Assembly (NCBI GenBank): GCA_018400715.1
Contig: JAGYME010000001.1
Span: forward strand, 44,940 to 108,939
Reading direction: 5' to 3'
DNA length: 64,000 bases
Source: Candidatus Bipolaricaulota bacterium
Lineage (GTDB): Bacteria; Bipolaricaulota; Bipolaricaulia; M55B111
Made by a program: the position numbers and the translations under genes. Shown piece after piece: positions 25,832 through 57,291 of this stretch (position 1 is its first letter; every line of letters begins with the position of its first letter). The notes below the pieces were generated by a model that saw only the letters and a list, made by a program, of their open reading frames with translations, was not told the DNA's origin and searched no databases.

Positions 25832-27022
25832 ATGAATATTACGGCTACGAAGCTGAAGACGGTTATGTTGCTGGGGATGTTCTTTTTTTTGCTCGCTTGC
25901 TCCGCTACGGTTTTTGGTCAGTCCTCCGATGACGGTTGGGGGCCATACCTCACTGTCGGGAAGGGTCCTGCAATAGTGGTCAACTGGAAGACCGATAAAC
26001 AATGGGCGGGAGAGGTCTCCTACTCGGCCGCATCCCCGGGTCCGGATGAGGAGAGTTTCACGAAATTGGAGAGAGAAACCGGGCCGGTCCAATTTCATCA
26101 CGTGCTGTTAGACGACCTGAAGGGAGGGACCGAATACGAATACGAGGTAAAGGGAAGTGAGGGTCCGTCTTCATATTACTTCAGAAGCCTCTCGGATGAC
26201 CCTCAAGAATTTGCGTTCTTCGTCTACGGCGATAATCGGACTTGCGTACAGAGACACCGGATGCTCTCCATCTGGATGGCGATGGATAGCTGGGACCCGA
26301 CCTTCATATTTCATACGGGAGACCTGGTAGAGCGGCCCACTCCCTCACGCTGGGCGGACTTCTTTTGGGCGATTGAACCGTTTAGCCGGTCTACCCCGCT
26401 GGTGCCCGTGCTGGGAAATCACGAAATGTATCACGGGAGCTATTTTGATGCCTTCTCTCTACCGACCGAAGACGGCGTCTATAAGAGAGGGTGGTATTCG
26501 TTCGAATACGGCCCGGTAAACTTCGTAATCCTAGACTCGAACGTAAATGAAATTGGATTATCCAAGTTCCTAGAGCAGACGGAATGGCTTAAGCGGGAGC
26601 TGGAAGGTCAGACGAGGGAGTACACCGTAGTCTTCTTTCATCACCCGATTTACTCCTCCGGATACTCGTCAGGTGTGGATTCCGGGCTGGCCGAGAGTTG
26701 GGGGAGCCTGTTTGAGAAACACGACGTCGACCTCGTCTTCAACGGACACGTGCACGCCTACGAGCGGCTCGTCAAGGACGGGGTAACCTACGTCGTCACC
26801 GGGGGCGGGGGCGCCCCCACGGACAACATATCTTCCAGGCTTGATATCTCCAAGGCGGCCCAGGGAGACTCCCTCCATTACGTCAGGGTCTCCGTTACGG
26901 AAACGGGGTTGGAACTTGAGACGGTGGAGGTCGCCCGGGTAAATCGCGAAGGAGAGTCCGGTAGAGTTGGGTGCGACGCCGAACTGTCTGAAGGTAGGGC
27001 GATAATCGACGATAATTATTAG
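25832..27022 (+). CDS. secreted metallophosphoesterase (purple-acid-phosphatase-like)
   Basis: GGAGGAA RBS and signal peptide MNITATKLKTVMLLGMFFFLLACSA. GDNR, HTGDLVE, GNHE, GHVHAYER metallophosphatase motifs. The TAG stop is completed by the first bases of the MITE. Confidence 0.85.
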   Translation: MNITATKLKTVMLLGMFFFLLACSATVFGQSSDDGWGPYLTVGKGPAIVVNWKTDKQWAGEVSYSAASPGPDEESFTKLERETGPVQFHHVLLDDLKGGTEYEYEVKGSEGPSSYYFRSLSDDPQEFAFFVYGDNRTCVQRHRMLSIWMAMDSWDPTFIFHTGDLVERPTPSRWADFFWAIEPFSRSTPLVPVLGNHEMYHGSYFDAFSLPTEDGVYKRGWYSFEYGPVNFVILDSNVNEIGLSKFLEQTEWLKRELEGQTREYTVVFFHHPIYSSGYSSGVDSGLAESWGSLFEKHDVDLVFNGHVHAYERLVKDGVTYVVTGGGGAPTDNISSRLDISKAAQGDSLHYVRVSVTETGLELETVEVARVNREGESGRVGCDAELSEGRAIIDDNY

Positions 27023-27125
27023 GGACGGTGCTTGACATTTTGACAATTTGGGCAAGTCCCTTTGCTAATTAATTCCCAATAGACCGGCTGTTTAGAATAA
27101 TGTCAAAATGTCAAGCACCGTCCCT
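27021..27125. mobile_element. MITE/REPIN-like element copy 1 (105 bp; 25-bp perfect TIRs AGGGACGGTGCTTGACATTTTGACA)
   Basis: Left end 27021-27045 equals the reverse complement of 27101-27125. The core is about 80% identical to copy 2. Confidence 0.9.
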
Positions 27126-27133
27126 CGATTTCA

Positions 27134-27544
27134 TCAATCGCAGATGTTTAACCTCTCGTCTTCGTCCACCGGTACCCCACAGGACTGGAGGAACTCCGGT
27201 TTGCGCTGGATTACTCTGCAGATCTCACATATCCTGCTGGGCAAGTCGTCAACCCGTCCTTCGACGAGGTCCCTGGCGAGCTTCTCTACCCTGCTGTATA
27301 CCTCCTCGTGTCTCGTGTAACTTCTTCCCCGTTTTTCCCTAACGTACTGGGAGACGCCGGCCTGACTTATGCCGAGTAGGTCGCCGACTTCCTGCTGGGT
27401 TATATCCATTCTTACCATCTCCCTGGCAAGACAGCCACGGATGCAGGGCACAATGTACCAAACGGCAACCTCGCAGGGTTGCTTGTGAACAAGTTTTTTT
27501 TCTTCTTCCTCCTGAGCCTTCTGTTCGTCGTTTGTTCCTGCCAT
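27134..27544 (-). CDS. XRE-type HTH transcriptional regulator with N- and C-terminal Cys pairs (putative metal/redox-binding)
   Basis: QQEVGDLLGISQAGVSQYVREKRG helix-turn-helix; CEVAVWYIVPCIRGC and CEICRVIQRKPEFLQSC motifs. Confidence 0.6.
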   Translation of the reverse strand: MAGTNDEQKAQEEEEKKLVHKQPCEVAVWYIVPCIRGCLAREMVRMDITQQEVGDLLGISQAGVSQYVREKRGRSYTRHEEVYSRVEKLARDLVEGRVDDLPSRICEICRVIQRKPEFLQSCGVPVDEDERLNICD

Positions 27545-27667
27545 ATATTGTTTTCTCCTTGTGAACGATGAATTAACCTATATCAAATGTTACGGCATAA
27601 CGTCAAAGCCTGACAAGAAAGGCTGAGTTCTCGGGGACAGAGTCTCCAGCCACCTAATCTCGCCAAG

Positions 27668-27695
27668 TTGACATTATTATTACAATTGTTATAAT
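27668..27695 (+). promoter_or_regulatory. sigma70-type promoter TTGACA-16-TATAAT with embedded palindrome ACAATTGT, upstream of 27823
   Basis: Consensus hexamers read directly. Followed by perfect palindromes ATTGCGATCGCAAT (27697-27710) and AATTTGCAAATT (27708-27719). Confidence 0.55.
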
Positions 27696-27822
27696 GATTG
27701 CGATCGCAATTTGCAAATTAACCCCGGGCCATTGTCTCGGGTGTTTCAGCCGAGCGCAGAGGGAAAACCGAAAACACTCAATCTGAGGAGATTGAACCAC
27801 TCAGGGTAGCTCGAATGAAAGG

Positions 27823-28407
27823 ATGAAAACTATACTAGATTTACAGACAACCGAAGAGGCAGCGAATAAGAGCGGGGGTGCCGAGGATGAGAAGATAGTC
27901 CGGTCGTTGACCCCCGTTATCATCGTCGGCCGCGAGGACCTCGCTGAAGAGTACGGTGAAGAGATAGAACTACCGGAAGTTAGACTAGAAGACCAAACCG
28001 GGGGAAATGGGAGGAGTAGAAACTCCCAGAAACCAGTGGAAGTTGACGTCGCCCGGGCGTGGAAGGCCGCAAACGAATGGATACAGGAACTCGTAGTGTA
28101 TCGGGACGAACGTGTACGGAAGAAAATCCACGAAAACCGGGTTAAGGACGAGACAAACCACTACCGAGGCGTAAAGACCGAAGAAAAGTTCAGATGGCAG
28201 TACGATGAAGAGACCATGAAGGACCTCAGGCCGATTTACCGACCGGTAAAGGAAAAGTTGATTGAGGATCTGGGCAATCCTAAGCGGTCAGCGTTTGCTT
28301 CCCTTTTCCCGCACGAGTTCGACGATTTGGGGCTCAGTGGCCGGGCCAGAAGAGCTGTCCGTGACCTGAAGGCAGTCTTTGGCGAGGATATTTTGTTGAA
28401 ATCTTAA
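27823..28407 (+). CDS. hypothetical protein (194 aa, charged, no signal peptide)
   Basis: ORF with AAGGA then ATG; no family recognised. Confidence 0.5.
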   Translation: MKTILDLQTTEEAANKSGGAEDEKIVRSLTPVIIVGREDLAEEYGEEIELPEVRLEDQTGGNGRSRNSQKPVEVDVARAWKAANEWIQELVVYRDERVRKKIHENRVKDETNHYRGVKTEEKFRWQYDEETMKDLRPIYRPVKEKLIEDLGNPKRSAFASLFPHEFDDLGLSGRARRAVRDLKAVFGEDILLKS

Positions 28408-28501
28408 TCTTTTTCAACGAGGGGTGATCCCATAGACCAACTCCCGACCCGGAGCATTATTTTGATTCATTCTTATACCAGAAACTTGGAGGTATTTTAA
28501 C

Positions 28502-29074
28502 ATGACAGAGAAGAAAGACGTAGAAACAGAAGGCGGCGTACTCGAAAACCTAAATCGCCGGGACTTTATTAAGGGTGCTGCCGCAGCAGTCGGCGGTCTG
28601 GCGTTTAGCTCGCTTGCGATTACGAACTTTGAGGCCGCTGCGGCGAACGGACAGGACTACGTTATAGTCACCGAGGTCGTTAAGGGAAGTGCGGGCGCCG
28701 TTGGCGCTCCCTGTGAGCTAACGAGCGTCTTCAAGAAGGGCGAGCAGGTCGTGTGGCACGCTGTCCTATTTAGCGGCAAGACGGGCGAAAAGCTAAACGA
28801 CCACGGGGAGATGCAAAAGCGCGGCGTAAAGGTCCAGGTAGAGCTGGAAAACGGAAAGACGATTGATATGCACCACGGGGAGCACCCGCCAAGCGGAAGC
28901 CCCAAGATCTACTACTGGGCTGGTGCCTGGAAGATCTCACCTGGTGCACCGACAGGCAAGATGACTTATAAGATTACGGCCAAGGACAAGGAAGGGCGGA
29001 CGGGGACCCTTAACATGTTTGGGAAAAAGGACGTAGACACCTTCCCAAGGGCGCTGACGATAGAGAATCGATAA
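28502..29074 (+). CDS. Tat-secreted hypothetical protein (190 aa)
   Basis: Twin-arginine signal NRRDFIKGAAAAVGGLAFSSLA. Confidence 0.6.
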   Translation: MTEKKDVETEGGVLENLNRRDFIKGAAAAVGGLAFSSLAITNFEAAAANGQDYVIVTEVVKGSAGAVGAPCELTSVFKKGEQVVWHAVLFSGKTGEKLNDHGEMQKRGVKVQVELENGKTIDMHHGEHPPSGSPKIYYWAGAWKISPGAPTGKMTYKITAKDKEGRTGTLNMFGKKDVDTFPRALTIENR

Positions 29075-29098
29075 AACGGCCAACAGGAACTCCTCGGT

Positions 29099-29140
29099 AA
29101 AGGGGGCCAGGTCTGGTCCTGGCCCCCTTTACCCTTTTAC
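29099..29140 (+). terminator. rho-independent terminator (13-bp stem AAAGGGGGCCAGG / CCTGGCCCCCTTT plus ACCCTTTTAC)
   Basis: Perfect inverted repeat with a 6-nt loop and a T-rich tail, directly after the stop of 28502..29074. Confidence 0.7.
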
Positions 29141-29154
29141 AAGGACGATATAAT

Positions 29155-30621
29155 ATGGACGAGAAGGACACAAACAGTGGAATAATTCGGGACTTGAACG
29201 AGATGCCCACTCCGGAGACCGGGTTTCAGGGACAGCTCAAGTGCAGTACGGACGAAGCGGAAGTAGGGGATACCGTTGAAATCACCGGTCTGGATCTGCC
29301 CGAGGAGGGTGAATTTCAGCTCCTGTGGAGGTCTTACAGCGTTGACTGGGATATGGAGAGACGGTCGGACGGAATTATCTGGAGGCGGTTCTTCGGGTTT
29401 GCGCACAGAGAAGTCCAGAGGTCCCTGGCTGAGGTGAGGACGGACCCGAACGGACGCTTTTCCCGGGAGTTTGCGGTACCGGAGGACTTCGGCGGACTTC
29501 ACGACATATATCTCATTGACGAAACGCGGCGGATCAACAAGGTCGGCCTCCGGATAGCCCCCAGTTTCGACGTCACTCCGGATTCAGTACCTTTGGGCCA
29601 ACCGATTACAATTACCGCCAAGGGGCTGCCACTTCCAGTTGCCGACTCCGTGGACAACCCCCCATATCACGTCTACTACGACAACAAGTACACGGGACTT
29701 ATAAGTCCCGTAACGCCGGACGGGACGACAAGTTTTACAATCCCTGCGACGGGGGAGAAGGGAACGCACGTGATCGACGTGGAGAGGTGCCCGTTTGGCA
29801 ACGCCCATTCCTACCGGCAGACCCATATAGGGTTGATATCCCTACCCGGGACCCCGGACCTGTCCTGGACATTTGAGTTGACGGGTGGCGAGCCGAACCT
29901 CCCCCCGCCGATCGAAGAGCAGACTCCCGCTCCGGTGATGAGACAGGGAGAAGAGGCGCCCGCAGAGAAGAATCCATCTCTGTGGACTGAGGAACGGGCG
30001 ATACCGGTAACCGGTACGGTGAACCTTAGCGGGGTTGGGTTCCCGCAGGACGCGGACGTAAAGATCGCCTGGTCACAGCTCGAGGGTAGTAACCTGCGCG
30101 AGGAGAGGTTTTCCGAGCGAGAAGCGGTCGTAGTCTGGGCGGAGGCCGACGGTGAGGGAAGATTTTCAGCGCAGATGGCCCCCATGCCGGCGACCGTCCA
30201 GGGTGGCCCCCATCCGATAAGCGCTTACGTTGAAGGAGAGAAGGTAGCAACTGCTTCAGTTATCGTCCTCCCCCAATTCAAGGAACTTGACCCCGATAGT
30301 GGACCCCCCGGGACGCAGATTACGGTAAACGGGGAGGGCGTGGGCTGGAACGAGATGTGGAATCAGGTGACGATCCTCTACGACAACTCCTACATAGGTT
30401 ACGTCTGTGGTGGGGATATCCCGGGGGTGGTAGAGGGAAAGCTCAGAGCGACGGGCCAGCCCGGCTGGCACATCATCGACCTCTACCCGACCATCCAGAA
30501 ACAGAGAAATTTCGCCGACGAGGCGTTTGAGATCCCGTTTATCTATCGGTTGCCGTTTTTAAACTGGGACTCCCACCCACAGGGTTATCATTTTAGGTAC
30601 GCGTTTCGGGTTGAAGAGTGA
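29155..30621 (+). CDS. hypothetical protein with Ig-like/IPT-like repeats (488 aa)
   Basis: Repeated ...GxPITITAKGLP... and GPPGTQITVNGEG segments; no signal peptide. Confidence 0.5.
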   Translation: MDEKDTNSGIIRDLNEMPTPETGFQGQLKCSTDEAEVGDTVEITGLDLPEEGEFQLLWRSYSVDWDMERRSDGIIWRRFFGFAHREVQRSLAEVRTDPNGRFSREFAVPEDFGGLHDIYLIDETRRINKVGLRIAPSFDVTPDSVPLGQPITITAKGLPLPVADSVDNPPYHVYYDNKYTGLISPVTPDGTTSFTIPATGEKGTHVIDVERCPFGNAHSYRQTHIGLISLPGTPDLSWTFELTGGEPNLPPPIEEQTPAPVMRQGEEAPAEKNPSLWTEERAIPVTGTVNLSGVGFPQDADVKIAWSQLEGSNLREERFSEREAVVVWAEADGEGRFSAQMAPMPATVQGGPHPISAYVEGEKVATASVIVLPQFKELDPDSGPPGTQITVNGEGVGWNEMWNQVTILYDNSYIGYVCGGDIPGVVEGKLRATGQPGWHIIDLYPTIQKQRNFADEAFEIPFIYRLPFLNWDSHPQGYHFRYAFRVEE

Positions 30622-31973
30622 GGTGGCTGACTTTGTGTGAAGACGACAAGAACACTGGAAAGAAATCCCTGACCAGACGGAGTTTGCTGAGGATAGCCGG
30701 CGGTAGCTTGCTCTCGCTATCCCTCCCATTTTACGCGGGTGAATTCGTCTCGGGTGCTGAGAACACGTTGAAGGTGGGGGGAATATTTTCCCTGACCGGG
30801 CCCAACTCTCCGGTGGGCAGGACTATACGGGATGGTGCGAAGTTGGCCATCCGGAGAGTAAATTCTTCCGGTGGAATATCCGGAACGATACCGCTGAAAC
30901 TGGACGTCAGGGATGGGGAGACGAGCCAAACCGGCGCCTCGGACGCGGCGCGGAAGCTAGCGAACCGGAAGGAGGTCAGCTTTGTCTTGGGCCCTCTAAT
31001 CGGCACTCATGGGGCAGCCAGCCAGCCGATCCTGGCCGCCGCCGGGATACCGCAAATCTTCTTCGGGACCGCGGTGGGGTTTACCGAGCGCCACGGGGAA
31101 TATCCGCTCTCGGTCCGGTTTGGAACACAGACTGCACTCCAGACCGCTCCCGTGTTGAAGTACGCCCTCAACGAACGAGGGGATGGAGATTTATTTTTGC
31201 TGGCCCCGAACAACCAGCAGGGCCGGGACTTCGACAGAGTTATCTCCGCCCAGACAGGGAGGTTGCAGGGTGCTGATCTTGTCGGTTCCGAGTACTACCC
31301 ACCGTTCAACCGAGACTTTTCTTCACTATTTGCGAAGGCAGTCAACTCCGGCGCTGATGGACTGATAGTCGGTACGGGCATTCCTGCGGACCTGGTCTCT
31401 CTCGCCAGGGAGTACCGTCGTCAGGGGGTAAGCTTCGATGACTTCGGTTATTACACTGGCCAGACGCCCAATGGATCGGTCGGTTTCTTCGAACAGGTCG
31501 TGGAGCGGGGACTTGGAGACGGGATAATTTTCTCCTGGCACTACGAGAGCGCGAATTACGCACGGGAGTTCGACCGCGATAATCCGCCCGAAGGAGTGGA
31601 GCTCATGGAGCGGGCGTTCCTGGAGGAATTTGGTTCTTACCCCGACTCCCCTCCTGCTGCCAGCTGGGGCTGGGGGAGTATAATGATTCTCAAGCAGGCG
31701 ATCGAAAGACTCGTCGAGGCCCGAGGAGAGGATTCGGTAGTTTCCTCCTTGAAAACTGGGAAACTCCCCCAAGATACTATCAACTACATCCTGCCCGAGC
31801 CCGGTACTGAAGTGACGGGACCGGTGTTTTACACGCCATTTGGCAACGCAGGATTTCTTAGCTGCGGTCAGTTTGACGTAAGGTTGGGGGTTGCCACGTT
31901 TAAAGACAGAGAGATATTGCTGCTCAAGGATCGGGGCTACGGTGAAGATATCATGGTGCCACTGTGTCCGTAG
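30618..31973 (+). CDS. ABC transporter substrate-binding protein, branched-chain amino acid (LivJ/LivK, cluster 4) family. Start may be TTG at 30633.
   Basis: Tat-like leader TRRSLLRIAGGSLLSLSLPFYAG; periplasmic-binding fold I motifs; GAGGTGG RBS before 30633. Confidence 0.75.
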   Translation: MRWLTLCEDDKNTGKKSLTRRSLLRIAGGSLLSLSLPFYAGEFVSGAENTLKVGGIFSLTGPNSPVGRTIRDGAKLAIRRVNSSGGISGTIPLKLDVRDGETSQTGASDAARKLANRKEVSFVLGPLIGTHGAASQPILAAAGIPQIFFGTAVGFTERHGEYPLSVRFGTQTALQTAPVLKYALNERGDGDLFLLAPNNQQGRDFDRVISAQTGRLQGADLVGSEYYPPFNRDFSSLFAKAVNSGADGLIVGTGIPADLVSLAREYRRQGVSFDDFGYYTGQTPNGSVGFFEQVVERGLGDGIIFSWHYESANYAREFDRDNPPEGVELMERAFLEEFGSYPDSPPAASWGWGSIMILKQAIERLVEARGEDSVVSSLKTGKLPQDTINYILPEPGTEVTGPVFYTPFGNAGFLSCGQFDVRLGVATFKDREILLLKDRGYGEDIMVPLCP

Positions 31974-31989
31974 ACGGAGAGGCCGACCG

Positions 31990-33903: not shown

Positions 33904-33924
33904 TCGTCTCGAGGGACAAAGCCT

Positions 33925-35254: not shown

Positions 35255-35270
35255 CGGTAAAAGGAGAAAT

Positions 35271-37001
35271 ATGGAGATATTCGAGCACGACTTGCTAATT
35301 GTTGGTGGCGGTGCGGCCGGGTTGAGGGCCGCGATTGCGGCTCGCGAGCACGTTGACGACGTCGGGATAATCTCGAAGGTCAACGTCTTACGGTCGCACT
35401 CGGTGACGGCCCAGGGAGGGATCTCTGCGCCACTGGGCAACACCGGCGAGGGCGTTGACGACAGTTGGAGGGTCCACTTTGAGGACACGGTCCGTGGTGG
35501 AGATGGACTCGTGGACCACGATGCCTGTGAGATTCTGACGAAGGGCGCGAGCGGAACGGTTTTAGAGCTGGATAACATGGGCGTGCCGTTCAATCGGACG
35601 GAGGACGGGAGGCTTGACCAGCGTCCCTTTGGTGGTCACAGCTTGCCGAGATCCCTGTATGCCGCGGACCGGACCGGCCACGGGATTACCTACGCTCTGT
35701 ACGGGGAAAACGTCCGGCTTGACAACGCCGTTTACAACGAGTTCTTCCTGCTTGACCTCGTGGCGGACGGGGCGAGAGTCAATGGGTTGACGGCTTATAA
35801 CATGAAGTCCGGGGAAGTGGTCGGTTTCAGGGGGAAGTCGGTCGTCCTTGCCACAGGTGGGTGCACTCAGGCGTTCGCGCATACCACAAGCGGGGCGGCT
35901 AGTACGGGAGACGGCCTAGGTATCGCGATGAGAAACGGGATACCGCTTGAGGATATGGAGTTCATCCAGTTTCATCCCACCGGACTTCCCGGAAGCGGGA
36001 TACTGATCTCGGAGGCCGCACGGGGTGAGGGCGGCTATCTGATTAACGACGACGGGGAAAGGTTCATGAAACGCTACGACCCCGAGAAGATGGAACTCTC
36101 ATCGCGGGACCGGGTCGTGCGGGGAATGCAGCGGGAAATCGAACGTGGTAAAGGGATCGACGGGGAGGACTACCTCCACCTTGACCTGACTCACCTATCC
36201 CGGCGTACTCTGGAAGAGAAGCTACCGACGATCAGCCAGATAGCTGAGGACTTTGCCAAGGTCGACCCTTCGGAGAGGCCGATTCCCGTGCGGCCGACCG
36301 CCCACTACTGCATGGGAGGAATACCCGTAACACTAAACGGCCGCGTCAAGGGGTCAAGTTGGGGAAACACCTGGGATAACCTGTTTGCGGCCGGAGAAGC
36401 TGCTTGTTTGAGCGTCCACGGGGCCAACCGGCTGGGGACTAACTCCCTGCTGGAGGCTGTGGTTTTCGGAAAGAGGATCGGGGCGGTGGCTGGAAGGACC
36501 GCGGAGGAGGGCAGTTTTGGTAAGTTGCCACGAGAGACGCTGAACCAGCAAGAAAAATATCTCACGGAGCTGAGGGAAAAAGATGGCACGGTCCGATTGG
36601 GAGAGATAAAGTCACGCCTGCGGGAGTTAACCTGGAATAAGTGCGGGGTGTTCAGAAATCAATCGGATCTGGAAGAAGCGAATGATGAGATTTATGAACT
36701 CAGGCGTACCTTCTCAGAAGAGCTTACCCTGGACGACCGGGGTTGTAAGTTCAACACCGAACTGCGCTCTGCTCTGGAGCTCCGTAATCTCCTGGAATTC
36801 GTCCCAGCAGTTCTTCTGGGCGCTTACAAGAGGACTGAAAGCCGGGGAGCCCATTACAGGGAGGACTATCCCGAGAAGGACGATGGAAACTGGGCGGTCC
36901 ATTCTTATGTTGTCAGGACAAACGAGGGACGCTACGGTGTGGACTATAGACCGGTCCGAAATGATACGGGCCGCGGAACAACAGACGAGGGAGGTGAGTG
37001 A
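35271..37001 (+). CDS. sdhA: succinate dehydrogenase / fumarate reductase flavoprotein subunit
   Basis: [17 protein letters not shown] fold, [10 protein letters not shown] covalent-FAD His region, HPTG and RLGTNSL catalytic motifs. AAGGAG RBS; 17 bp after the end of livF. Confidence 0.85.
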
Positions 37002-37002
37002 A

Positions 37003-38300: not shown

Positions 38301-38364
38301 CTTGATATGGCCTTTATTATGCCAACGAAGTCAGAAAATCTGAATTTCTTTAGGAGCGTTGAAC

Positions 38365-39171
38365 ATGGAGAATAAAGGAAAGAAGACAGCCCTGATCACC
38401 GGGGCGTCACGGGGAATTGGTTACGAGATAGCGAAGCTCGCTGCTCAGAACGGCTACAATTTGGCCATCGTGAGTCGCTCTCTGGAAAACCTCGTCTCCG
38501 TTAAAAAGAAAATCGAGAGGGAGTACGGCGTCAACGTTGAGCCAATCGCGGGTGACTTAAGTTACACCGAGACGGCAGAGAGGATATTTGACCGCTTGAG
38601 CGGTGCGGATATGTGGGTTGATCTACTCGTAAACAACGCGGGTAGGGGTCAAATGGGGGAGTTCATCGAGACGGACTGGGAAGTAGACCGGGAGATGATG
38701 CGGTTAAACATGGACGCGGTGGTTTACCTGACCGACCTGTTCCTGCCACAGATGATAGAGAGGGGACAGGGAAAGATCTTAAACGTTTCATCGCTGGCCG
38801 CATTTGCTCCGGGTCCCCTCATGGCCCTCTATTACGCGACAAAGGCCTTCGTTCAGAATTTTTCCGAAGGACTGGCCGAGGAGGTCGCAGATAAGGGGGC
38901 GACCGTGACCGCCCTTTCTCCTGGACCGGTGGACACGGGGTTCGAGATAAAAGGAGTAAAGCCATCTGAGAACGGAAACAAATCTGTCAGGGTGTCCCCT
39001 GAGTTGGCCGCAAAAGTCGGATACAACGGCGTCATGAGCGGCAAGCGAGTCGTCGTCCCCGGCGGGGCGGTCTCAGTTGCCCCACAGCTGGCCCGCCTCT
39101 TACCGCGGAGGACAGTAAGCAGCTTCATCAGTTGGCTAAACAACCGCCTATTGTACAGGGACGGTGCTTGA
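38365..39171 (+). CDS. SDR-family oxidoreductase; last four codons and stop lie inside MITE copy 2
   Basis: TGASRGIG and NNAG motifs, S...YxxxK. AGGAG 8 nt before the ATG at 38365. The stop TGA at 39169-39171 is inside the TIR. Confidence 0.8.
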   Translation: MENKGKKTALITGASRGIGYEIAKLAAQNGYNLAIVSRSLENLVSVKKKIEREYGVNVEPIAGDLSYTETAERIFDRLSGADMWVDLLVNNAGRGQMGEFIETDWEVDREMMRLNMDAVVYLTDLFLPQMIERGQGKILNVSSLAAFAPGPLMALYYATKAFVQNFSEGLAEEVADKGATVTALSPGPVDTGFEIKGVKPSENGNKSVRVSPELAAKVGYNGVMSGKRVVVPGGAVSVAPQLARLLPRRTVSSFISWLNNRLLYRDGA

Positions 39172-39261
39172 CATTTTGACAATTTTGTCAAGTTCATTTG
39201 CTATGTAATTCCCTATAGGCCGTCTGTTTCGGATAATGTCAAAATGTCAAGCACCGTCCCT
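39157..39261. mobile_element. MITE/REPIN-like element copy 2 (105 bp)
   Basis: TIRs 39157-39181 and 39237-39261 are perfect inverted copies; same orientation and a similar core to copy 1. Confidence 0.9.
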
Positions 39262-39322
39262 CCATTAACTAGTTAATGGACTGTCGACTTAGCATGTCAC
39301 ATAGTGTTATTTGTGATATGAC

Positions 39323-40195
39323 ATGCGGACGGCAAGAAGAACATATAAGGGTGCCTTCCATCACGTAATGAACCGTGGTCACGAAGGCAAGATGATATTT
39401 TCTTCCAGAGGCCTCAAACGAAAGTTCCTAAAGTTCCTGGTCGATCAGGCCGACAAGACGAAGATTAGGGTATTTGCTTATTGCCTTATGAACAATCATT
39501 ATCATTTGGTCCTACAGAATAGTTCCGGGAAACTTTCTAACTTTATGCGCAATCTAAACGGATCCTTTGGGACGACGTATAGGAATAGGGAGGGAGGCAA
39601 AGGTTATGTCTTTCAGAACCGCTTCAAATCCACGCTTATCACGACAGATCATTATCTCTCGGCTGTAATAGCATATACGTTGTTGAATCCTCTTCGAGCT
39701 GGTCTGGTAGAAGATCCGTATAATTACGAATGGTCGAGTATCAATGAATACTTCTCTAACGACAAGAAGACCGTCACCGATAGGGAATTTGTTGAAAATC
39801 TCTTCATGTCCCAGGACGGGCTGAGAAGACATCTATCACATTGGGTTGGGAGAGAACTACCCGTGAAAGACACCGATCAAGGCGAAGTGATCGGCGAAGA
39901 GAAGGGGCCGATCAGAAGGACGGGGATCATTGACAGGGCAAAAGAGGATGTGCAAAGATTTCCCAAGGTACAGGTTGTTATCGCCAGATTCGAAATGGAG
40001 AAAGGTGTCGAGTTGAGCGATATAGATCTCTCCAGCCACAATGGAAAGCGATTGAGGGCGGAGCTATTGGTTCGCCTCAAGGACGATGCCGGACTAACTT
40101 ATAGAGAGATCAGTGAAATGTCGATATTTGAAACTCTGAGTTATTCTTCTCTTGGGAAAATATATCAGCGAACGAAGAGAAGACTGGCAACGTAG
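39323..40195 (+). CDS. IS200/IS605-family HuH Y1 transposase (TnpA), REP-associated tyrosine transposase (RAYT)-like, 290 aa with C-terminal HTH-like extension
   Basis: YHVMNRGHEG...AYCLMNNHYHLVLQ (HuH motif)...YVFQNRFKS...YTLLNPLRAGLV...YEWSS (catalytic Tyr region). Flanked by MITE copies 2 and 3. Confidence 0.8.
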   Translation: MRTARRTYKGAFHHVMNRGHEGKMIFSSRGLKRKFLKFLVDQADKTKIRVFAYCLMNNHYHLVLQNSSGKLSNFMRNLNGSFGTTYRNREGGKGYVFQNRFKSTLITTDHYLSAVIAYTLLNPLRAGLVEDPYNYEWSSINEYFSNDKKTVTDREFVENLFMSQDGLRRHLSHWVGRELPVKDTDQGEVIGEEKGPIRRTGIIDRAKEDVQRFPKVQVVIARFEMEKGVELSDIDLSSHNGKRLRAELLVRLKDDAGLTYREISEMSIFETLSYSSLGKIYQRTKRRLAT

Positions 40196-40331: not shown

Positions 40332-40625
40332 ATGAAGAATAATGTTGAAGATAATGACCAGGGCTTACAGCTGGCCTCCCCCGTGGTAGTTTCCTGTCGT
40401 GATGAAAACGGAATGACAATGCGCTGGTAGTTGCATACGCGTCCAACTGTAGTTTTGACCCCCCCAATGTTAATTGTTGGCATCGTCCCTTCTAGATATT
40501 CATATCATATGGTAAAAGAAACTGGTGCCTACGTGGTTAACCTGGTATCTGAAGACCTCAAGGAAGAATTTGATTATCTCGGGCACAATAGCGGCCGAGA
40601 TGTGTTTAGTAGGGACGGGGCTTGA
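40332..40625 (+). pseudogene. flavin-reductase-like (FMN-binding split-barrel) gene remnant; in-frame TAG at 40428 and truncated by MITE copy 3
   Basis: SPVVVSCRDENGMTMRW-stop-LHTRPTVVLTPPMLIVGIVPSRYSYHMVKETGAYVVNLVSEDLKEEFDYLG resembles the N-terminal half of flavin reductases. The reading frame terminates ...RDGA* inside the TIR. Confidence 0.5.
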
Positions 40626-40715
40626 CAGTTTGACATTTCTAGCAACTCCCGTTGCTGTAAGCGTTTCGCTGTAATTCGACCGTAAAATATTGTCAAAATG
40701 TCAAGCCCCGTCCCT
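40611..40715. mobile_element. MITE/REPIN-like element copy 3 (105 bp; TIR variant GGGG on both arms)
   Basis: AGGGACGGGGCTTGACA...TGTCAAGCCCCGTCCCT; core unrelated to copies 1 and 2. Confidence 0.9.
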
Positions 40716-40723: not shown

Positions 40724-40751
40724 TTGACATTCTTCTAATCTGTGATATACT
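40724..40751 (+). promoter_or_regulatory. sigma70-type promoter TTGACA-16-TATACT upstream of the GntR-family gene
   Basis: Consensus -35 at 40724-40729 and -10 at 40746-40751, 9 bp past the MITE end. Confidence 0.55.
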
Positions 40752-43942: not shown

Positions 43943-43944
43943 CT

Positions 43945-45842: not shown

Positions 45843-45918
45843 TAAGTAGGAACATTTGCCATTACTAAATGAATAGCGCTAACCTGCATTCCAGAGAGCC
45901 AATCCGAGGAGGAGTTTG

Positions 45919-46719: not shown

Positions 46720-46735
46720 CTACAGGTAGTAACCG

Positions 46736-47767: not shown

Positions 47768-47798
47768 ACCTATTTTGACCTATTGACAGAGGAGAACG

Positions 47799-48950: not shown

Positions 48951-48974
48951 AACCTTGGAGGATAGATTTCGTTC

Positions 48975-50105: not shown

Positions 50106-50163
50106 CCGTGTAGGTGGTCATAATTGTTGAGAGGAGATAGAGAGACATGGAGGAATTATCCAT

Positions 50164-50991
50164 ATGAGCGAGAGGATTAATAGTTACGATTTGACGGACA
50201 GAGTTGTCGTAATTACTGGCGGTGCTGGAGTGCTGTGTTCTAAAATAACGAAGGAGCTGGGGAATTCTGGAGCAAGGGTAGCGGCCCTCGATATTGACCG
50301 GGATGGTCTAGACGAGTTAAGTGGCGAGTTAACACAGGCAAGTGTTAAGCACCTGGCGCTCGAGACCGACGTGCTCGACAGAAAAAGTCTGACAGATGCC
50401 GCGGACGTCGTAAAGCAGAGGTTTGGTAAGGTCGACGTCTTAATCAACGGAGCGGGTGGAAACAGCCCGGAGGCCACGACGGGACCGGAGCAGTCGTTTT
50501 TTGACCTCCCCGCGGAGGGCGTGCAGAAGGTCTTCAACCTCAACTTCCTCGGTACCTTCCTCGCCTCACAGGTATTCGGCGAAGTTTTTGCCGAGCAGGG
50601 AGAGGGCGTGATCCTGAACGTCTCGTCGATGAACGCATTCACTCCGCTGACAAAGATCCCTGCGTACTCGGCTGCGAAGGCCGCCGTGAGCAACTTCACC
50701 AGGTGGCTCGCCGTCCACATGTCGCAGAACTATTCCACAGACATCCGGGTAAACGCCATCGCCCCTGGATTTCTCCTCACAGAGCAGAACAGGTACCTGC
50801 TCCTCGATGAGGAGACGGGTGAATTAACCCCCAGGGGAAAGACGATCATCGAGCATACACCGATGGACAGGTTCGGGGACCCGAAAGATCTGGTCTCAAC
50901 GGTCCTCTGGCTGATCGCGCCCGGTTCGGAGTTCGTCCACGGCACGGTTATACCCATTGACGGCGGATTCTCTGCGTTTAGTGGCGTATAG
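50164..50991 (+). CDS. SDR-family oxidoreductase (mannonate/polyol oxidoreductase-like)
   Basis: ITGGAGVLC, NGAG, S...YSAAK motifs. Confidence 0.8.
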   Translation: MSERINSYDLTDRVVVITGGAGVLCSKITKELGNSGARVAALDIDRDGLDELSGELTQASVKHLALETDVLDRKSLTDAADVVKQRFGKVDVLINGAGGNSPEATTGPEQSFFDLPAEGVQKVFNLNFLGTFLASQVFGEVFAEQGEGVILNVSSMNAFTPLTKIPAYSAAKAAVSNFTRWLAVHMSQNYSTDIRVNAIAPGFLLTEQNRYLLLDEETGELTPRGKTIIEHTPMDRFGDPKDLVSTVLWLIAPGSEFVHGTVIPIDGGFSAFSGV

Positions 50992-51004
50992 ACCTGGAGG
51001 TAAT

Positions 51005-52408: not shown

Positions 52409-52459
52409 AGGGTATGAGAGAATTTATGCTTCTCAATCACCTACGAGGTGAAGGTCTTT

Positions 52460-53488
52460 ATGTCTACCGATGACGGCAACGCGAGGATCACGGTTGTAAA
52501 CTCCAGCAGCTTCGGGGTGCATTTCCCCTACTGCCTCGACGAGCTGGAGTCGATCGGGGAGGTAAACAGAATAAACGTGCCCCCGGGAATATCCGGCGAA
52601 AGACTCGCCCGCAAGCTCCAGGGGGCGGAATACGTGATCGCCAGCGTGACCCCAGACTTTCCCAGGTCTTTCTTCGAACGGATCGACGACCTCAAGCTGA
52701 TCGCAAGGCATGGAATTGGCTGCGACAACGTCGACCTCGACGCCGCCACGGAGGCAGGCGTTCTGGTTACCAGGGTGTCCGGAGACAGCGAAAGGGACGC
52801 GGTGGCAGAGCTGGCGGTAGCACTGATGACAAGCTGCGTCAGGGACGTCGTCCCCGCGGGGAAGGCTGTCGAGTACGGCCGCTGGGAGAAGAGGTCGGAG
52901 TTCGTCGGACTGGAGATATCCGGCAGCACGGTTGGAGTCGTGGGGTATGGCAACATCGGCAGCCGCGTAGGAGAAATAGCGAAGTGGGGGTTTGGAGCGG
53001 AGGTCTTAGCCTACGACCCGAATATTGCGGACCCCGTAATCCAAAATTGTGGCGTCGAACCCGTGTCATTTGTTGAGGTCCTCTCCAGATCGGACATCAT
53101 CTCGTTTAACGCCTCGCACAACCGGGATAATTACCACTTCATCGGAAAAGAGGAGTTCGGGATGATGAAGGATGGGGTGGTAATCGTCAATACCGCCCGC
53201 GGAGAATTGATCGAAGAGGACCCATTTGCGGAAGCGCTTAAGTCGGGCAAGGTGCGAGCTGCCGGGATAGACGTGATGGAAGAGGAACCGTTGAACGAGG
53301 AGAGTCCCCTGGTCGGCCTGGACAATTTGATTATCCTTCCGCACGTCGGCAGTTACACGGAGAGGTCGCTACGTGAGATGGACGAGAAGATGGTTGAGGA
53401 CGTTAAGCGGGTCAGGGAAGGGCTGAGGCCGGACGAGGTCGTCAACGGTAAGGTATTGAATAGGTCCAACAGGGCGGGAATAGAATGA
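52460..53488 (+). CDS. D-isomer-specific 2-hydroxyacid dehydrogenase (PGDH/glyoxylate-reductase-like)
   Basis: GVVGYGNIGSRVG Rossmann motif and catalytic R/E/H context. Confidence 0.8.
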   Translation: MSTDDGNARITVVNSSSFGVHFPYCLDELESIGEVNRINVPPGISGERLARKLQGAEYVIASVTPDFPRSFFERIDDLKLIARHGIGCDNVDLDAATEAGVLVTRVSGDSERDAVAELAVALMTSCVRDVVPAGKAVEYGRWEKRSEFVGLEISGSTVGVVGYGNIGSRVGEIAKWGFGAEVLAYDPNIADPVIQNCGVEPVSFVEVLSRSDIISFNASHNRDNYHFIGKEEFGMMKDGVVIVNTARGELIEEDPFAEALKSGKVRAAGIDVMEEEPLNEESPLVGLDNLIILPHVGSYTERSLREMDEKMVEDVKRVREGLRPDEVVNGKVLNRSNRAGIE

Positions 53489-54987
53489 GTTCTGTAGTGG
53501 TGGTCGACGTCGGCACGAGTAACGTCAAGGTGGGAGTGGTGAACCAGAAGGGAGAACTGCTGGCTCACGGCAGCAGGGAGCTGCCCGTAGAGCGCCCGGA
53601 GAAGGGAGCGGCCGAACACGACCCCGAAACCATGTTCGAGGGGCTCCTGTCGCTCCTGAAAGAGATAATAGGGGAGAGCAGGAAAGCGGTGGAGGGTTTA
53701 GTACTATCTGGTTATCACGGTGGTTTTCTCCCCCTTGATTCCGAGATGGTGCCGCTCACCGGGTTGATCACCCTCCTTGATACGCGGACGAAGGTCGTCA
53801 TGGACGAATTCGAGCGGGAGTTTCCTATGGAGGAGATATACAGAAAGACGGGCTGTCCTTCGCTCTTCATCTACTCCCTGCCCAGGATTTACTGGCTGCG
53901 GCGGGAAAAGCCGGAGCTGTTTGGAAAAAGCGCCTACTTCAGTGACGTCAAGGGCTACCTGCTCTACCGCCTCGCCGGTAGCTTCTGCACGGAGCCGAGC
54001 GTGGCATCCGCGACCCAGCTATTGAATATAAGGGAGAACGACTGGGACGAAGCCGTCCTGGAAATGGTCGGAATTGATAAAGGGGCTCTTCCCGAGGTCG
54101 TCGACGGAGACAGCGTAGTAGGAGAAGTTAGTCCGGAGTTGGCAAGCGCAACTGGCATGTCTGAGGGGACTCCGGTAATTTCCGGGGTCTACGACGGCGG
54201 TTCGATGATACTCGGAATGGGAGGGTTCTCCGGCGACGTGGGGATATGCAATATCGGAACGACCGCTATGATCAGGACGTCGGCCTCGGAGCCGGTGCTC
54301 GACTCAGACCGGCCCCCCAGACTGCAGACCTACTCCCTCTTACCGGGGAAATGGGCAATAGGCGGGGCCGTAAACAACGCGGGAGTCTCGCTGAAGTGGT
54401 TCCGCGACACACTTTCCATCGACGACGGCTACAAGAGCATAATTGACCGCGCTGAGACCGTGGGGCCTGGCGCCGACGGCGTTTTCTGTCTACCGTTTTT
54501 GACGGGCGAAAGGGACCCACGGGTGGGCAACATGGCGTCCGGCGTATTCTTTGGAATCAAGGATTATCATTCATCGGGTCATCTGAGCAGGTCTATACTG
54601 GAGGGAGTCGCATACAGCCTGCGCATGGTGCTGGAGTCCCTCCGGGATAACGGAATTGACGTCGATTCACTCCGGATCGGCGGTTCCGGGGCCAAGTCTG
54701 ACCTCTGGCCTTCCATCGTTGCCGACGTCTTGAACGTACCAGTAACGAAGTCAATGACTCCGGACGCCACCCTTATAGGTAGCGCGATGGTCGCCTTCAC
54801 CCGACTTGGTGAGTTTTCTTCGCTCGACGAGGCAACCGATAGTATGGTAAGGACGGGTGACGTCTTCACCCCTGAGCATGCTAGACGGAAACGCTACGAG
54901 GAGGCCTACGACTTCTTCGTCGAGTTGATATCGACCATCAGGAACCTCTATCCCACCCACGCGGCGAAGTTTTTGGGAACAGAGTGA
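53485..54987 (+). CDS. FGGY-family carbohydrate kinase
   Basis: VVVDVGTSNVKVGVV N-terminus; 500 aa; 4-nt overlap with the upstream gene. Confidence 0.85.
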   Translation: MSSVVVVDVGTSNVKVGVVNQKGELLAHGSRELPVERPEKGAAEHDPETMFEGLLSLLKEIIGESRKAVEGLVLSGYHGGFLPLDSEMVPLTGLITLLDTRTKVVMDEFEREFPMEEIYRKTGCPSLFIYSLPRIYWLRREKPELFGKSAYFSDVKGYLLYRLAGSFCTEPSVASATQLLNIRENDWDEAVLEMVGIDKGALPEVVDGDSVVGEVSPELASATGMSEGTPVISGVYDGGSMILGMGGFSGDVGICNIGTTAMIRTSASEPVLDSDRPPRLQTYSLLPGKWAIGGAVNNAGVSLKWFRDTLSIDDGYKSIIDRAETVGPGADGVFCLPFLTGERDPRVGNMASGVFFGIKDYHSSGHLSRSILEGVAYSLRMVLESLRDNGIDVDSLRIGGSGAKSDLWPSIVADVLNVPVTKSMTPDATLIGSAMVAFTRLGEFSSLDEATDSMVRTGDVFTPEHARRKRYEEAYDFFVELISTIRNLYPTHAAKFLGTE

Positions 54988-55171
54988 ACTATTTGTAATT
55001 TATCCCCTGGAAACCTGCGACGTTCATTTCTCAAAGTAGATAAACCATGATTCATAGTCATATCCAGCCCTTGTACGTCGGACCAAATGATTTTATACTA
55101 GGTGGAAGAACGGGTGGACGGCGACTACCACGGTTAACATAAAGAAGACTGGAGGTAAACAGCTGATAGAC

Positions 55172-56092
55172 ATGGGGAATAACAATACTCTCCCGGGTTC
55201 AATTGGAAATACCCCTCTCATTAGACTGAAGAGCATAGAGGGTGATAACGGGGGAAAGATCTACGGCAAGTACGAGGGGGGAAACCCCGGTGGGTCGGTC
55301 AAGGACAGGCCAGCCTACTACATGATAGCTAAGGCGGAAGAGTCAGGCAAACTGACCCCGGACAAGGAAATCATCGAACCGACTTCCGGCAACACCGGCA
55401 TCGGTCTCGCCATGATCGGGACCGCCAAGGGTTACCGGGTTACGCTGGTCATGCCCGAGTGTGCCAGCCTGGAGAGAAGGCGGATCCTGGAGGCGTTTGG
55501 GGCAAACCTCGTTTTGACCCCTGGCGAGAAGAAGACGGACGGGGCTATAGAGGAAGCTCTCAGGCGCGTGGAGGAGGACCCGGGCAGGTACTTCATGCCC
55601 AATCAGTTCGTCAACGGAGCCAACCCCCTGGCGCATTACGAGACGACCGGTCCGGAAATTCTTGACCAGACGGACGGTGAAATAGACGTGCTCGTGGCGG
55701 GGCTGGGAACGTCGGGAACGATCATGGGGCTGGCCAGGTATTTTAAAGAACATAAACCAACCGTTACCATCACGGCCGTCGAACCACAGGTGGGCCACGG
55801 GGTTCAGGGATTAAAGAACATGGAGGAGGCGATCACCCCTGAAATATATGACCCCGAGATGCTTGATGACAAGATCACGGTCGCCGACGAGGACGCCTTC
55901 GAGATGGCCCGAAGGATTGCCAGCCAGGAGGGTTTGCTCGTGGGGGCCTCCAGCGGAGCTGCCGTCGCCGGAGCCGTCCGGGTGCTGGAGGAAATGGACT
56001 CCCCAACAGTAGTCGCTATCCTCCCGGACAGGGGCGACCGCTACCTGAGCACCAACCTGTTCAAGTCCGTCTGCACCGAGTGTCCTCCATAA
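55172..56092 (+). CDS. cysK: cysteine synthase / O-acetylserine sulfhydrylase (PLP fold type II)
   Basis: GNTPLIRL...GGSVKDRPA (PLP lysine)...GNTGIGLA...GTSGT motifs. Confidence 0.8.
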   Translation: MGNNNTLPGSIGNTPLIRLKSIEGDNGGKIYGKYEGGNPGGSVKDRPAYYMIAKAEESGKLTPDKEIIEPTSGNTGIGLAMIGTAKGYRVTLVMPECASLERRRILEAFGANLVLTPGEKKTDGAIEEALRRVEEDPGRYFMPNQFVNGANPLAHYETTGPEILDQTDGEIDVLVAGLGTSGTIMGLARYFKEHKPTVTITAVEPQVGHGVQGLKNMEEAITPEIYDPEMLDDKITVADEDAFEMARRIASQEGLLVGASSGAAVAGAVRVLEEMDSPTVVAILPDRGDRYLSTNLFKSVCTECPP

Positions 56093-56101
56093 CCTCAATT
56101 A

Positions 56102-56752
56102 TCAAGTGGAGTGAGCTTTTTCACTAATTTCCTTTACCTTACCACATACCGCCATACCCAGTTTCTCATGCTCTTCCCTTTCCAGGTGGATGCCGTCCAC
56201 CTCGCTCGATCTAACGTGGTCACCAGCGTCGAGGAGATACGTACCCCTCTCGCCAGCAACTCGCTTAAATTGTTCGGAGAAGCCCAGGGATTTATCCCTG
56301 GCACCGGAGAAGACCTGCTCGTACTCGGTCAGCTTTGCAATTGGGGGTGGCGCGATGAGAAGAATCTCCGGAGTCCCGTCTTCTCTACCGGTCTCGCTTT
56401 TTTTGATTATATCAACCAGGGTCCCTGCCCCCTCGGCCACGTCGTAAGCGGTGACGGAAAAGCGAGTCTTCAGGTCGTTTGTCCCCAGCATGAGGACGAC
56501 GAGATCCAGCGGCTTGTGCGTCTCCAGGCAGGGTACAAGGTAGTTCTTTCCCGATTTGAACCCCTCTATGGGGTCCTCCCATACGGTCGTCCGCCCGTTT
56601 AGGCCCTCTTCGATGACCAGGAACCCGTCTCCGAGTTCCTTCCGTAGCACCCCCGTCCAGCGGCTGTCCCTGTCGTAGCGGCCTTCGGAGCCGGGGACTG
56701 CCCCCCAGGTATTTGAATCGCCGTAACAGAGTATCTTGTACAAGTAGATCAC
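56102..56752 (-). CDS. SGNH/GDSL-family hydrolase
   Basis: ILCYGDSNTWG (block I Ser), LMLGTNDL (block III); 216 aa. Confidence 0.8.
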   Translation of the reverse strand: MIYLYKILCYGDSNTWGAVPGSEGRYDRDSRWTGVLRKELGDGFLVIEEGLNGRTTVWEDPIEGFKSGKNYLVPCLETHKPLDLVVLMLGTNDLKTRFSVTAYDVAEGAGTLVDIIKKSETGREDGTPEILLIAPPPIAKLTEYEQVFSGARDKSLGFSEQFKRVAGERGTYLLDAGDHVRSSEVDGIHLEREEHEKLGMAVCGKVKEISEKAHST

Positions 56753-56988
56753 CTCATCCCCTTATCTTACGGAAAAAGATGAATCCAGGAAAGAAATGCA
56801 GCTGATATTCCCGTTAAATGCTTTACCGAAGATAAATGTCTTTTGGTTAGTTCTGTAAATATTACTTGTATAACAATTTAAATATATTAATATGATTAGT
56901 AACTGTAGTATCTTCAACTAGCCCTCATAATTGAGGGATACGTATTATCCTACCAGAGAACAATCTTAATAAATGGGAGTTGAGAACA

Positions 56989-57171
56989 ATGACTAGACGC
57001 GTAAGTCTGGCTGTAGTAGTCGGTCTGGTCGTTGGATTAATAGTTGGTGGAGTAGTGGGCCTTGCTCAAGAGGAAAACGAAGCAACCGACATGGACCCAT
57101 CGGTCTTCGTGATAGAGAACGAAAGCAAATATGATTTCGACGAGACAGTCGAGATGATCCACGTATTATAA
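56989..57171 (+). CDS. small membrane protein (60 aa), hypothetical
   Basis: Single TM (LAVVVGLVVGLIVGGVVGL) followed by an acidic tail. Confidence 0.35.
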   Translation: MTRRVSLAVVVGLVVGLIVGGVVGLAQEENEATDMDPSVFVIENESKYDFDETVEMIHVL

Positions 57172-57187
57172 CAGGGACGATTATAAC

Positions 57188-57291
57188 AGGGACGGGGCTT
57201 GACATTTTGACAATATATCCAGGTTAATTTTACGGTAAGGGCGGCTGGTTGGCCTTCACAAAAAAATGTCAAAATGTCAAGCTCCGTCCCT
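57188..57291. mobile_element. MITE/REPIN-like element copy 4 (104 bp; one TIR mismatch)
   Basis: AGGGACGGGGCTTGACATTTTGACA ... TGTCAAAATGTCAAGCTCCGTCCCT. Preceded by a 15-bp tandem duplication ATTATAACAGGGACG. Confidence 0.85.

Follow-up and report, generated by a model that had tools for sequence, protein, structure and literature searches.

Inverted dimers of a 24-25-nt terminal repeat and a TIRYT-type tyrosine transposase gene in a Bipolaricaulota contig: a probable TIRtron with REPIN-like satellites

Results

Inverted-repeat elements and a transposase gene in the window

A stretch of 64,000 nt from Candidatus Bipolaricaulota bacterium (assembly GCA_018400715.1, contig JAGYME010000001.1, positions 44,940 to 108,939; hereafter the window) was examined following an initial annotation, which had reported four elements of 104-105 bp that end in inverted arms of 25 bp. 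All four were recovered, and an open reading frame (ORF) that had been overlooked was found between the second and the third of them. This ORF, present in one copy in the window, encodes a Y1/HUH tyrosine transposase that resembles the REP-associated tyrosine transposases (RAYTs; REP, repetitive extragenic palindrome). As argued below, the four elements are likely to be non-autonomous inverted dimers of the 24-25-nt terminal repeat of this enzyme, which is of the TIRYT type (a RAYT-like protein whose gene is flanked by terminal inverted repeats, TIRs), so that the locus would represent a TIRtron with a satellite population similar to REPINs (REP doublets forming hairpins). The features are listed in Table 1.

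Table 1. Features of the transposase locus and of the inverted-repeat elements, in window coordinates
Feature	Position	Strand	Description
TIR dimer, copy 1	27021..27125		Arms 27021-27045 and 27101-27125, 55-nt core
TIR dimer, copy 2	39157..39261		Perfect arms; left limit of the transposase locus
RAYT-like Y1/HUH tyrosine transposase, TIRYT type	39323..40195	+	290 aa, intact; NNHYH, FQ, YTLLNP, WSS; C-terminal DnaA-domain-IV-like helix-turn-helix (HTH)
Flavin-reductase gene remnant	40431..40610	+	Pfam Flavin_Reduct positions 30-81 of 153, E 1.4e-8
TIR dimer, copy 3	40611..40715		Right limit of the transposase locus
15-nt tandem duplication	57165..57194	+	TTATAACAGGGACGA followed by TTATAACAGGGACGG; straddles the left end of copy 4
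TIR dimer, copy 4	57188..57291		104 bp

Searched for with up to two mismatches, the 25-mer AGGGACGGTGCTTGACATTTTGACA matched the window eight times, as four facing plus/minus pairs with 54-55 nt between the arms; 100 of 100 dinucleotide-preserving shuffles gave no match, that is, eight arms against none expected. A profile search, using a profile built from 140 arms, yielded no solo or degenerate arm in the 64 kb beyond these eight. The initial annotation had described the arms as perfect. This holds for copies 1 and 2, which pair over the full 25 bp, but copy 3 contains a single G/A mismatch (an unpaired G at arm position 17, left arm), and the stem of copy 4 contains one G.T wobble pair on the top strand, which had been recorded as G opposite A. 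The T-to-G substitution noted in both arms of copy 3 is real and yields a G:C pair at position 9 of the 25-mer.

The description of the cores likewise stood in part. Those of copies 1 and 2 are identical at 44 of 55 positions (80%), and that of copy 4 has no relation to the cores of copies 1-3; the core of copy 3, however, which had been thought unrelated, matches that of copy 1 at 25 of 55 positions (shuffle mean 14.3, standard deviation 3.2), so that it is a diverged relative of the copy 1 and 2 cores. A small internal hairpin is common to the cores of copies 1-3, with a compensatory change (GGCAAG..TTTGCT vs AGCAAC..GTTGCT). The A and T said to precede and follow every copy proved to be the first and last bases of the elements themselves, the bases just outside copies 1-4 being t/c, c/c, t/a and c/c.

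Each arm begins with AGGGACGG in the window copies and with GGGGACGG in relatives from other genomes. The profile of arms contains in every arm the sequence GCTTGACAtTTTGACA, which comprises two perfect sigma-70 -35 hexamers (TTGACA), and there are two 8-nt direct repeats, TTGACAnT, per arm; neither GTAG nor GTGG was found in the arm sequence. Complementarity between the flanks extends beyond the 24-mer (mean 1.31 vs 0.61, permutation p<1e-4). Because this extension is mostly limited to 1-3 bases (GG/CC or TG/CA, and A/T in the window), it is read as the true, if slightly variable, tip of the TIR and not as insertion into pre-existing palindromes.

Folding of the full elements bore out the suspected hairpins: as single-stranded DNA, each window element forms one long hairpin (dG -25 to -34 kcal/mol, z -6.7 to -10). 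A single arm alone does not fold (dG -0.6, z -0.27, about -0.3), and the hairpin would therefore arise only from both arms together. An Rfam scan at gathering thresholds returned no match; look-alikes of the mir-203 hairpin seen at E<=1 were rejected as sub-threshold (23 bits vs a gathering score of 65), so that no known RNA family is indicated.

The transposase

The window protein matches Pfam Y1_Tnp (E 5.8e-7). H59, H61, Y118 and N122 are the same in all 44 homologues and P123 in nearly all (at least 90%), and the window protein, like all nine aligned units, contains YVFQNRF and EWSSINEY. While a PDB sequence search with the window protein gave no match, its AlphaFold model (pLDDT 85) has 4er8_A as its best PDB fold match, with a TM score of 0.71 on the target, followed by 2xma, 2vic and 2a6m, the TnpA proteins of IS608 and ISDra2. 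Structure 4ER8 shows the REP-associated tyrosine transposase of Escherichia coli in complex with a REP hairpin, and it is the N-terminal domain of the window protein that models onto it. A separate model of the last 80 residues (pLDDT 94.5) superposes on DnaA domain IV (3pvp_A, 1j1v_A and 8btg chains; TM 0.69-0.73, root-mean-square deviation 2.2-2.4 over ~76 columns), with Foldseek E-values that are weak, as is usual for so small a domain.

HMMER, run in full against 1.84 billion representatives, gave some 85 clusters (at 50% identity) with E<=1e-30, mostly full-length, and some 9,900 with E<=1e-10, mostly covering the catalytic domain only. A plasmid search returned only distant transposases (<=36% identity). 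Directly after copy 2, at 39262-39279 and 44 nt upstream of the transposase start, lies a perfect 18-nt palindrome, CCATTAACTAGTTAATGG, which could serve as an operator of the transposase gene.

Arms and gene-bearing units in other genomes

Scanning 185,579 species genomes for the arm yielded 79 loci in 21 metagenome-assembled genomes (MAGs), belonging to candidate division WOR-3, Stahlbacteria, TA06, Omnitrophota, MAGs labelled Aminicenantes or Clostridia, and unclassified bins; viral contigs contained no match to the arm pattern. The number of loci per genome ranges from 2-3 to at least 28 (individual loci are referred to by L numbers). There are 47 facing-arm pairs, 71-217 nt apart (four of these are the window copies), mostly with unrelated cores, and solo arms and small clusters are also present among the 21 genomes. 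The initial annotation had proposed a mobile family, similar to miniature inverted-repeat transposable elements (MITEs) and REPINs, in which only the termini are conserved as the substrate of a transposase or as a hairpin, and had set against it a family of cis-regulatory palindromes limited to the four copies, with conserved cores in a longer motif. The distribution of the arms over 79 loci, with unrelated cores and flanks, agrees with the former and not with the latter.

Longer units were found in eight genomes (L010, L015, L050, L051, L054, L057, L071, and L077), where arms 981-992 bp apart delimit ~990 bp. Each contains one orthologous gene of ~300 aa, whose product is 46-50% identical to that of the window ORF, and every long unit with these ends codes for a Y1/HUH protein and nothing else. 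One MAG may contain a second unit (L033). Four additional loci were reached via the protein and not via the arm pattern, and are thus free of the ascertainment bias of a pattern search; they too have arms on both sides of the gene, with one mismatch in L111 (Elusimicrobia), four to six mismatches in L113 (a Spirochaetes-labelled MAG), and variant arms in L114 (GGTGACGGTGCTTGTA...) and L116 (ATCTCGGTGCTTGACAGTaTGACA). The conserved core of the arm across both arm-led and protein-led loci is CGGTGCTTGACAnTnTGACA.

When the units of L010 and L057, which lie in different contexts, are compared, homology begins and stops exactly at the arm ends. In five WOR-3 genomes (L010, L015, L051, L054, and L071) the gene-bearing unit is syntenic, which indicates long vertical residence at one locus. 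At these syntenic loci the arms are 100% identical over their first 24 nt, and the left arm is so too in an alignment of four of the five genomes, with one near-duplicate dropped. In that alignment identity is 67-71% in the flanks, 69.5% in the ORF (52% at third codon positions), and 44-55% in the spacers between arm and ORF. The proteins compared are 45-64% identical, yet the arms differ by at most one mismatch. Judged by these identities, the arms are shown to be far more constrained than either the gene or its flanks. In L051 and L054, the locus of the unit adjoins a gene for a metallo-beta-lactamase-fold, RNase-J-like protein.

Many homologues of the transposase (P0005, P0006, P0011, P0049, P0099, and P0104) are located on contigs of ~977-1006 bp, which is the length of the unit from arm to arm. 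This suggests that in those metagenomes the assemblers break at the repeated arms.

Position relative to genes

The insertion sites were also mapped relative to gene ends; the location and distance statistics use gene calls made crudely from ORFs. Each of the 47 short elements is in intergenic DNA, many of them close to stop codons, and the 42 that could be classified lie between convergent (12), tandem (15), or divergent (15) genes. For 27 of 41 distances, the neighbouring 3' end falls within -22 to +9 nt of the element. An ORF runs into the arm in 13 cases, 11 of which end at the TGA inside GCTTGACA (-14) and two at the next in-frame TGA (-22). Once the length of the element is subtracted, the median distance between convergent genes is -0.5 nt, whereas it is 49 nt where no element is present (Mann-Whitney p 0.0009), and the element seems to stand in for the normal convergent spacer.

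In the window, copy 1 has convergent neighbours: the phosphoesterase gene (25670-27022) has a TAG stop made up of a T and the first two bases (AG) of the element, and the downstream gene, on the minus strand, stops 9 nt away. A short-chain dehydrogenase/reductase (SDR) gene (38359-39171) enters the arm of copy 2 by 15 nt, and its last four codons (RDGA) and TGA are element-encoded; SDR orthologues end in ...KLNEYQL[KD], the window protein in ...WLNNRLLY+RDGA.

Signs of mobility and copying

Dimers with related cores were found at different loci of one genome, in either orientation, as well as among window copies 1-3; the whole dimer is therefore the unit that is copied. A 217-nt element, L027, still codes for the last ~45 residues of the transposase and is an internal-deletion derivative of the gene-bearing unit. 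No direct target-site duplication was present in 51 elements, which extends to the relatives what had been remarked of the window copies.

Duplications of another kind straddle the ends of certain elements. The unit duplicated at copy 4 (Table 1) joins 7 nt of flank, within which lies the TAA stop of an ORF at 56980-57171, to the first 8 nt of the arm. End-straddling duplications are also present in L022 (5624-5731), L016 (~2040-2140), L071 (left of the unit), and L114 (upstream of the gene), with units of 51-54 nt or repeated pieces of GGGGACG(GTGCTTG). They may be the footprint of slippage or stalling, or of aberrant cleavage and ligation, at the foot of the hairpin. In the interval between copies 2 and 3, the flavin-reductase remnant is truncated precisely where copy 3 begins; with the remainder of that gene missing, a deletion or rearrangement associated with copy 3 is indicated.

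Other features of the window

Among the other genes of the window, an SdhA/FrdA-like flavoprotein (35271-37001) has its nearest named relatives in MAGs of Candidatus Bipolaricaulota (59-70% identity), and two large beta-helix/NosD-like proteins are encoded at 7038-9167 and 19793-22216. The window looks like ordinary chromosomal DNA.

Discussion

The proposed mechanism

Enzymes of the Y1/HUH type act on single-stranded DNA and recognise hairpins, as do those of IS608 and ISDra2 and the E. coli RAYT. In the mechanism that we propose, the two arms of an element would fold back on each other when the DNA is single-stranded, for example in the lagging-strand template, to form a stem of ~25 bp. The DnaA-domain-IV-like HTH would bind the duplex stem, probably at the two TTGACAnT repeats, and the HUH/Tyr domain would cut at the G+C-rich foot, (A/G)GGGACGG...CCGTCCC(T/C). 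The element would then be moved or copied without target duplication, and would be kept mostly in intergenic DNA at gene ends. Dimers of 71-217 nt should fold far more readily than a unit of 1 kb, which would explain why many dimers occur beside one, positionally stable copy of the gene.

Comparison with known systems

The initial annotation considered the family novel, which was an overstatement: RAYT-like genes flanked by TIRs, often starting GGGGWSAS and with further TIR copies that are single, dimeric, or grouped, were named TIRtrons, or TIRYTs, in 2013 (Di Nocera et al. 2013, PMC3733652). Quentin et al. (2018, PMC6006769) equate these TIRYTs with their TnpA-Y1 subclass 2.1 and with RAYT Group 1 of Bertels et al. 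(2017, PMC5581495), and give as the signature of the subclass NH[YF]H, FQ, Y..LNP, SS, and a DnaA_C-like HTH (Table 1 of that paper). The group is the largest and most widespread among the RAYTs. Quentin et al. (PMC6006769) found no repeats for subclass 2.1, whose median protein length is 238, and Bertels et al. (PMC5581495) reported ~12 flanking 16-mers per replicon for Group 1, a weak association with repeats.

Assigned to the subclass by published motifs and by predicted structure, the window system has all of the defining features of a TIRtron that were tested. The protein has the Y1/HUH core with NH[YF]H (here NNHYH) and a single catalytic Tyr in Y...NP (YTLLNP), FQ in place of the W motif, SS in the proximal tail, and, by predicted structure, a C-terminal DnaA_C-like HTH (similar to Bac_DnaA_C, HTH_23, or HTH_28). 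The start of the TIR is of the GGGGWSAS type, at seven of eight positions in the relatives (GGGGACGG) and six of eight in the window (AGGGACGG). The gene is directly bracketed in the eight arm-led loci and has related arms in the four protein-led ones, the window gene being located between dimers, and repeat copies are dispersed (four dimers in the window; dimers, solo arms, and clusters in the 21 genomes), with a low copy number of the gene. In other respects the system departs from those described. The protein is longer, at ~290-300 aa against the median of 238; the 24-nt arm, and especially CGGTGCTTGACAnTnTGACA, is conserved over several candidate phyla with proteins that are just 45-50% identical; the density of dimers is high in some hosts (four in 64 kb, and at least 28 loci in one MAG); and the hosts are uncultured (WOR-3, Stahlbacteria, Elusimicrobia, and the Bipolaricaulota-like window).

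The REPIN-RAYT system (Bertels and Rainey 2011, PMC3116915; the E. coli REPtron, 4ER8) is similar in that an inverted pair of units and a spacer form a long hairpin that is copied whole, and repeats lie on both sides of one Y1/HUH gene; the window gene lies between two dimers as does the REPIN-flanked gene of E. coli. Intergenic sites and the lack of a target-site duplication are further likenesses, and in the relatives the gene, syntenic in five WOR-3 genomes, is probably inherited vertically. Conversely, each REP forms a short, imperfect palindrome of its own with a 5' GT[AG]G foot, whereas the single arm is no palindrome (dG -0.6) and lacks such a foot. Spacers are long here and show no relation from one subfamily to another, the protein carries an additional HTH at its C-terminus and scores below the NCBIfam RAYT equivalog cut-off, and the repeat is conserved between distant hosts instead of being lineage-specific. 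The system thus works like REPIN-RAYT, but without the palindrome and foot, and short of the curated score.

With IS200/IS605 elements (IS608, ISDra2), the system shares the Y1/HUH fold, the lack of target duplication, and presumably the chemistry on single-stranded DNA. Those elements, however, have sub-terminal hairpins and no TIRs, in contrast to the 25-bp TIRs of this family; their transposases have Y...Q instead of Y...NP and are ~150 aa long with no HTH, as against 290 aa with an extra domain; and they are multi-copy and autonomous, often with tnpB. Classical bacterial MITEs, such as the Correia and RUP-type elements, are intergenic, non-autonomous sequences of ~100 bp with TIRs that can arise by internal deletion of a parent. 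The elements described here are like them in size, TIRs, intergenic sites, and, in the case of L027, internal-deletion origin, and unlike them in that the parent enzyme is a tyrosine HUH and not a DDE transposase, and in having no direct target-site duplication.

Evidence against a TIRtron

Several points weigh against assigning the four elements to the window transposase as a TIRtron and its satellites. The window gene has no single arms immediately beside it; its neighbours on the two sides are dimers, 61 and 415 nt away. The score of its product against the NCBIfam model REP_Tyr_transpos (NF047646, "REP-associated tyrosine transposase") is 64.2 bits, below the equivalog cut-off of 80, and Pfam HTH families gave no hit in any of 44 members, so the HTH match is a structural one only. 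In two complete WOR-3 chromosomes there are just 2-3 exact-arm loci; proliferation is therefore not general. To our knowledge, transposition, binding, or cleavage has never been observed for any TIRYT.

A clean pair of filled and empty orthologous sites was not found, either in a search of metagenomes for the SDR neighbour or in a comparison of L002 with L039. The closest SDR orthologues (63-65% identity) have no element, but they have different downstream genes and are informative on the C-terminus only. In L002 and L039 the flanking genes are orthologous and the gene between them differs, which is ambiguous, and the two were rejected as a filled/empty pair. Finally, the matched changes in the arms had been taken to point to maintenance of pairing. 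Although the changes are real, they are equally expected if one protein recognises both ends, since that protein must fit each of them, and most of the variation is between genomes; arm covariation was accordingly set aside as uninformative about pairing.

Alternative explanations

The strongest rival, and one that is compatible with mobility, is that the dimers now mainly serve the host as gene-end structures (bidirectional terminators, mRNA-stabilising 3' hairpins, or insulators), kept through selection on the host in the way suggested earlier for REPs, with the transposase as their historical source or maintainer. The proximity to stop codons (27 of 41 distances between -22 and +9 nt), the convergent spacers (median -0.5 vs 49 nt), and the very stable hairpins with their G+C-rich foot, together with T-rich right flanks at several copies, are what would be expected of such structures, as are the conservation of the arms across phyla and the vertical inheritance of the gene-bearing unit at one locus in five WOR-3 genomes. 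Yet divergent genes flank 15 of the 42 classifiable elements, and a terminator has no role at such sites. In addition, the loop of 23-170 nt and the lack of a conserved U-tract are unlike intrinsic terminators, a terminator scan was negative at window copies 2 and 3, the cores are unrelated, and genomes differ in copy number, from 2-3 to at least 28 loci; the distance statistics that favour a gene-end function rest, moreover, on crude ORF picks. As the principal account of the dimers we consider it unlikely. A broader proposal appears to us slightly less doubtful, though still on the improbable side: that the arm is an ancient, cross-phylum recognition module of an HUH-DnaA-IV HTH nuclease, and that dimers have been co-opted as gene-end terminators or insulators, making the family a domesticated, host-beneficial, REPIN-like symbiont and not just a parasite. 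If this were true, dimers would insert at, or replace, stop-proximal spacers, especially convergent ones, and the end-straddling duplications would be footprints of cleavage and ligation.

Two other explanations fare far worse. The presence of GCTTGACAtTTTGACA in every arm raises the question of whether the arms are cis-regulatory promoters or operators, in which the TTGACA hexamers drive transcription or bind a regulator; indeed, the first hexamer lies 16 nt upstream of TACAAT, TACAGT, or TAGACT before the transposase start in L051, L054, L071, L010, and L015. Around copies 2 and 3, however, there is no -10 box 16-18 nt after the arm hexamers, and the sole strong promoter (40724-40751) lies outside copy 3. 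The hexamers point inward, to a gene-free core of 55 nt, many copies lie at 3' ends or between convergent genes, and the outer GGGACGGTGC, which has no promoter role, is equally conserved. We therefore rejected the TTGACA boxes as promoters of the window copies; the idea fits only the transposase gene in some relatives, and as an account of the arms it is very improbable. At these same five loci (L010, L015, L051, L054, and L071) a TACAAT-like box directly precedes the GTG start, so that the transposase mRNA would have little or no leader. The strong promoter beside copy 3, which is a near-consensus sigma-70 promoter (TTGACA, 16 nt, TG-TATACT), begins 9 nt past the element and precedes a GntR/FCD regulator gene (start ~40807). 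Less probable still is that the elements are classical MITEs moved by the DDE transposase of an ordinary insertion sequence with the same TIRs. Such an origin would suit the perfect TIRs, small size, variable cores, and intergenic sites, but it is at odds with the lack of target-site duplication in 51 elements, in which the 1-3 extra complementary flank bases are inverted and not direct, and with the long units, all of which carry a Y1/HUH gene only; nor were the arms found in viral contigs. The missing duplication and the Y1 parent element led us to exclude MITEs of the DDE type.

Significance

The likely TIRtron with its REPIN-like satellites adds to what has been described in three respects. 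The conservation of a 24-nt arm across candidate phyla, while the enzyme diverges to <50% identity, is new. Also new are clear REPIN-like dimer populations for a subclass that was reported to be without repeats (PMC6006769) or with few (PMC5581495), and the uncultured hosts of this family. REPIN-like intragenomic populations are thereby extended to uncultured candidate phyla, and a repeat that is far more conserved than its enzyme is an unusual pattern.

The elements are also of practical concern. They break metagenome assemblies, several contigs of ~980-1000 bp consisting of the gene-bearing unit alone, and they rewrite the C-termini of neighbouring proteins, which is relevant to annotation. 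Lastly, the locus offers a sequence-defined substrate: a 24-nt arm, a G+C-rich foot, two 8-nt repeats, an enzyme with a separable HTH, and natural short dimers. A direct test is thus possible of a tyrosine HUH transposase that handles TIRs rather than sub-terminal hairpins.

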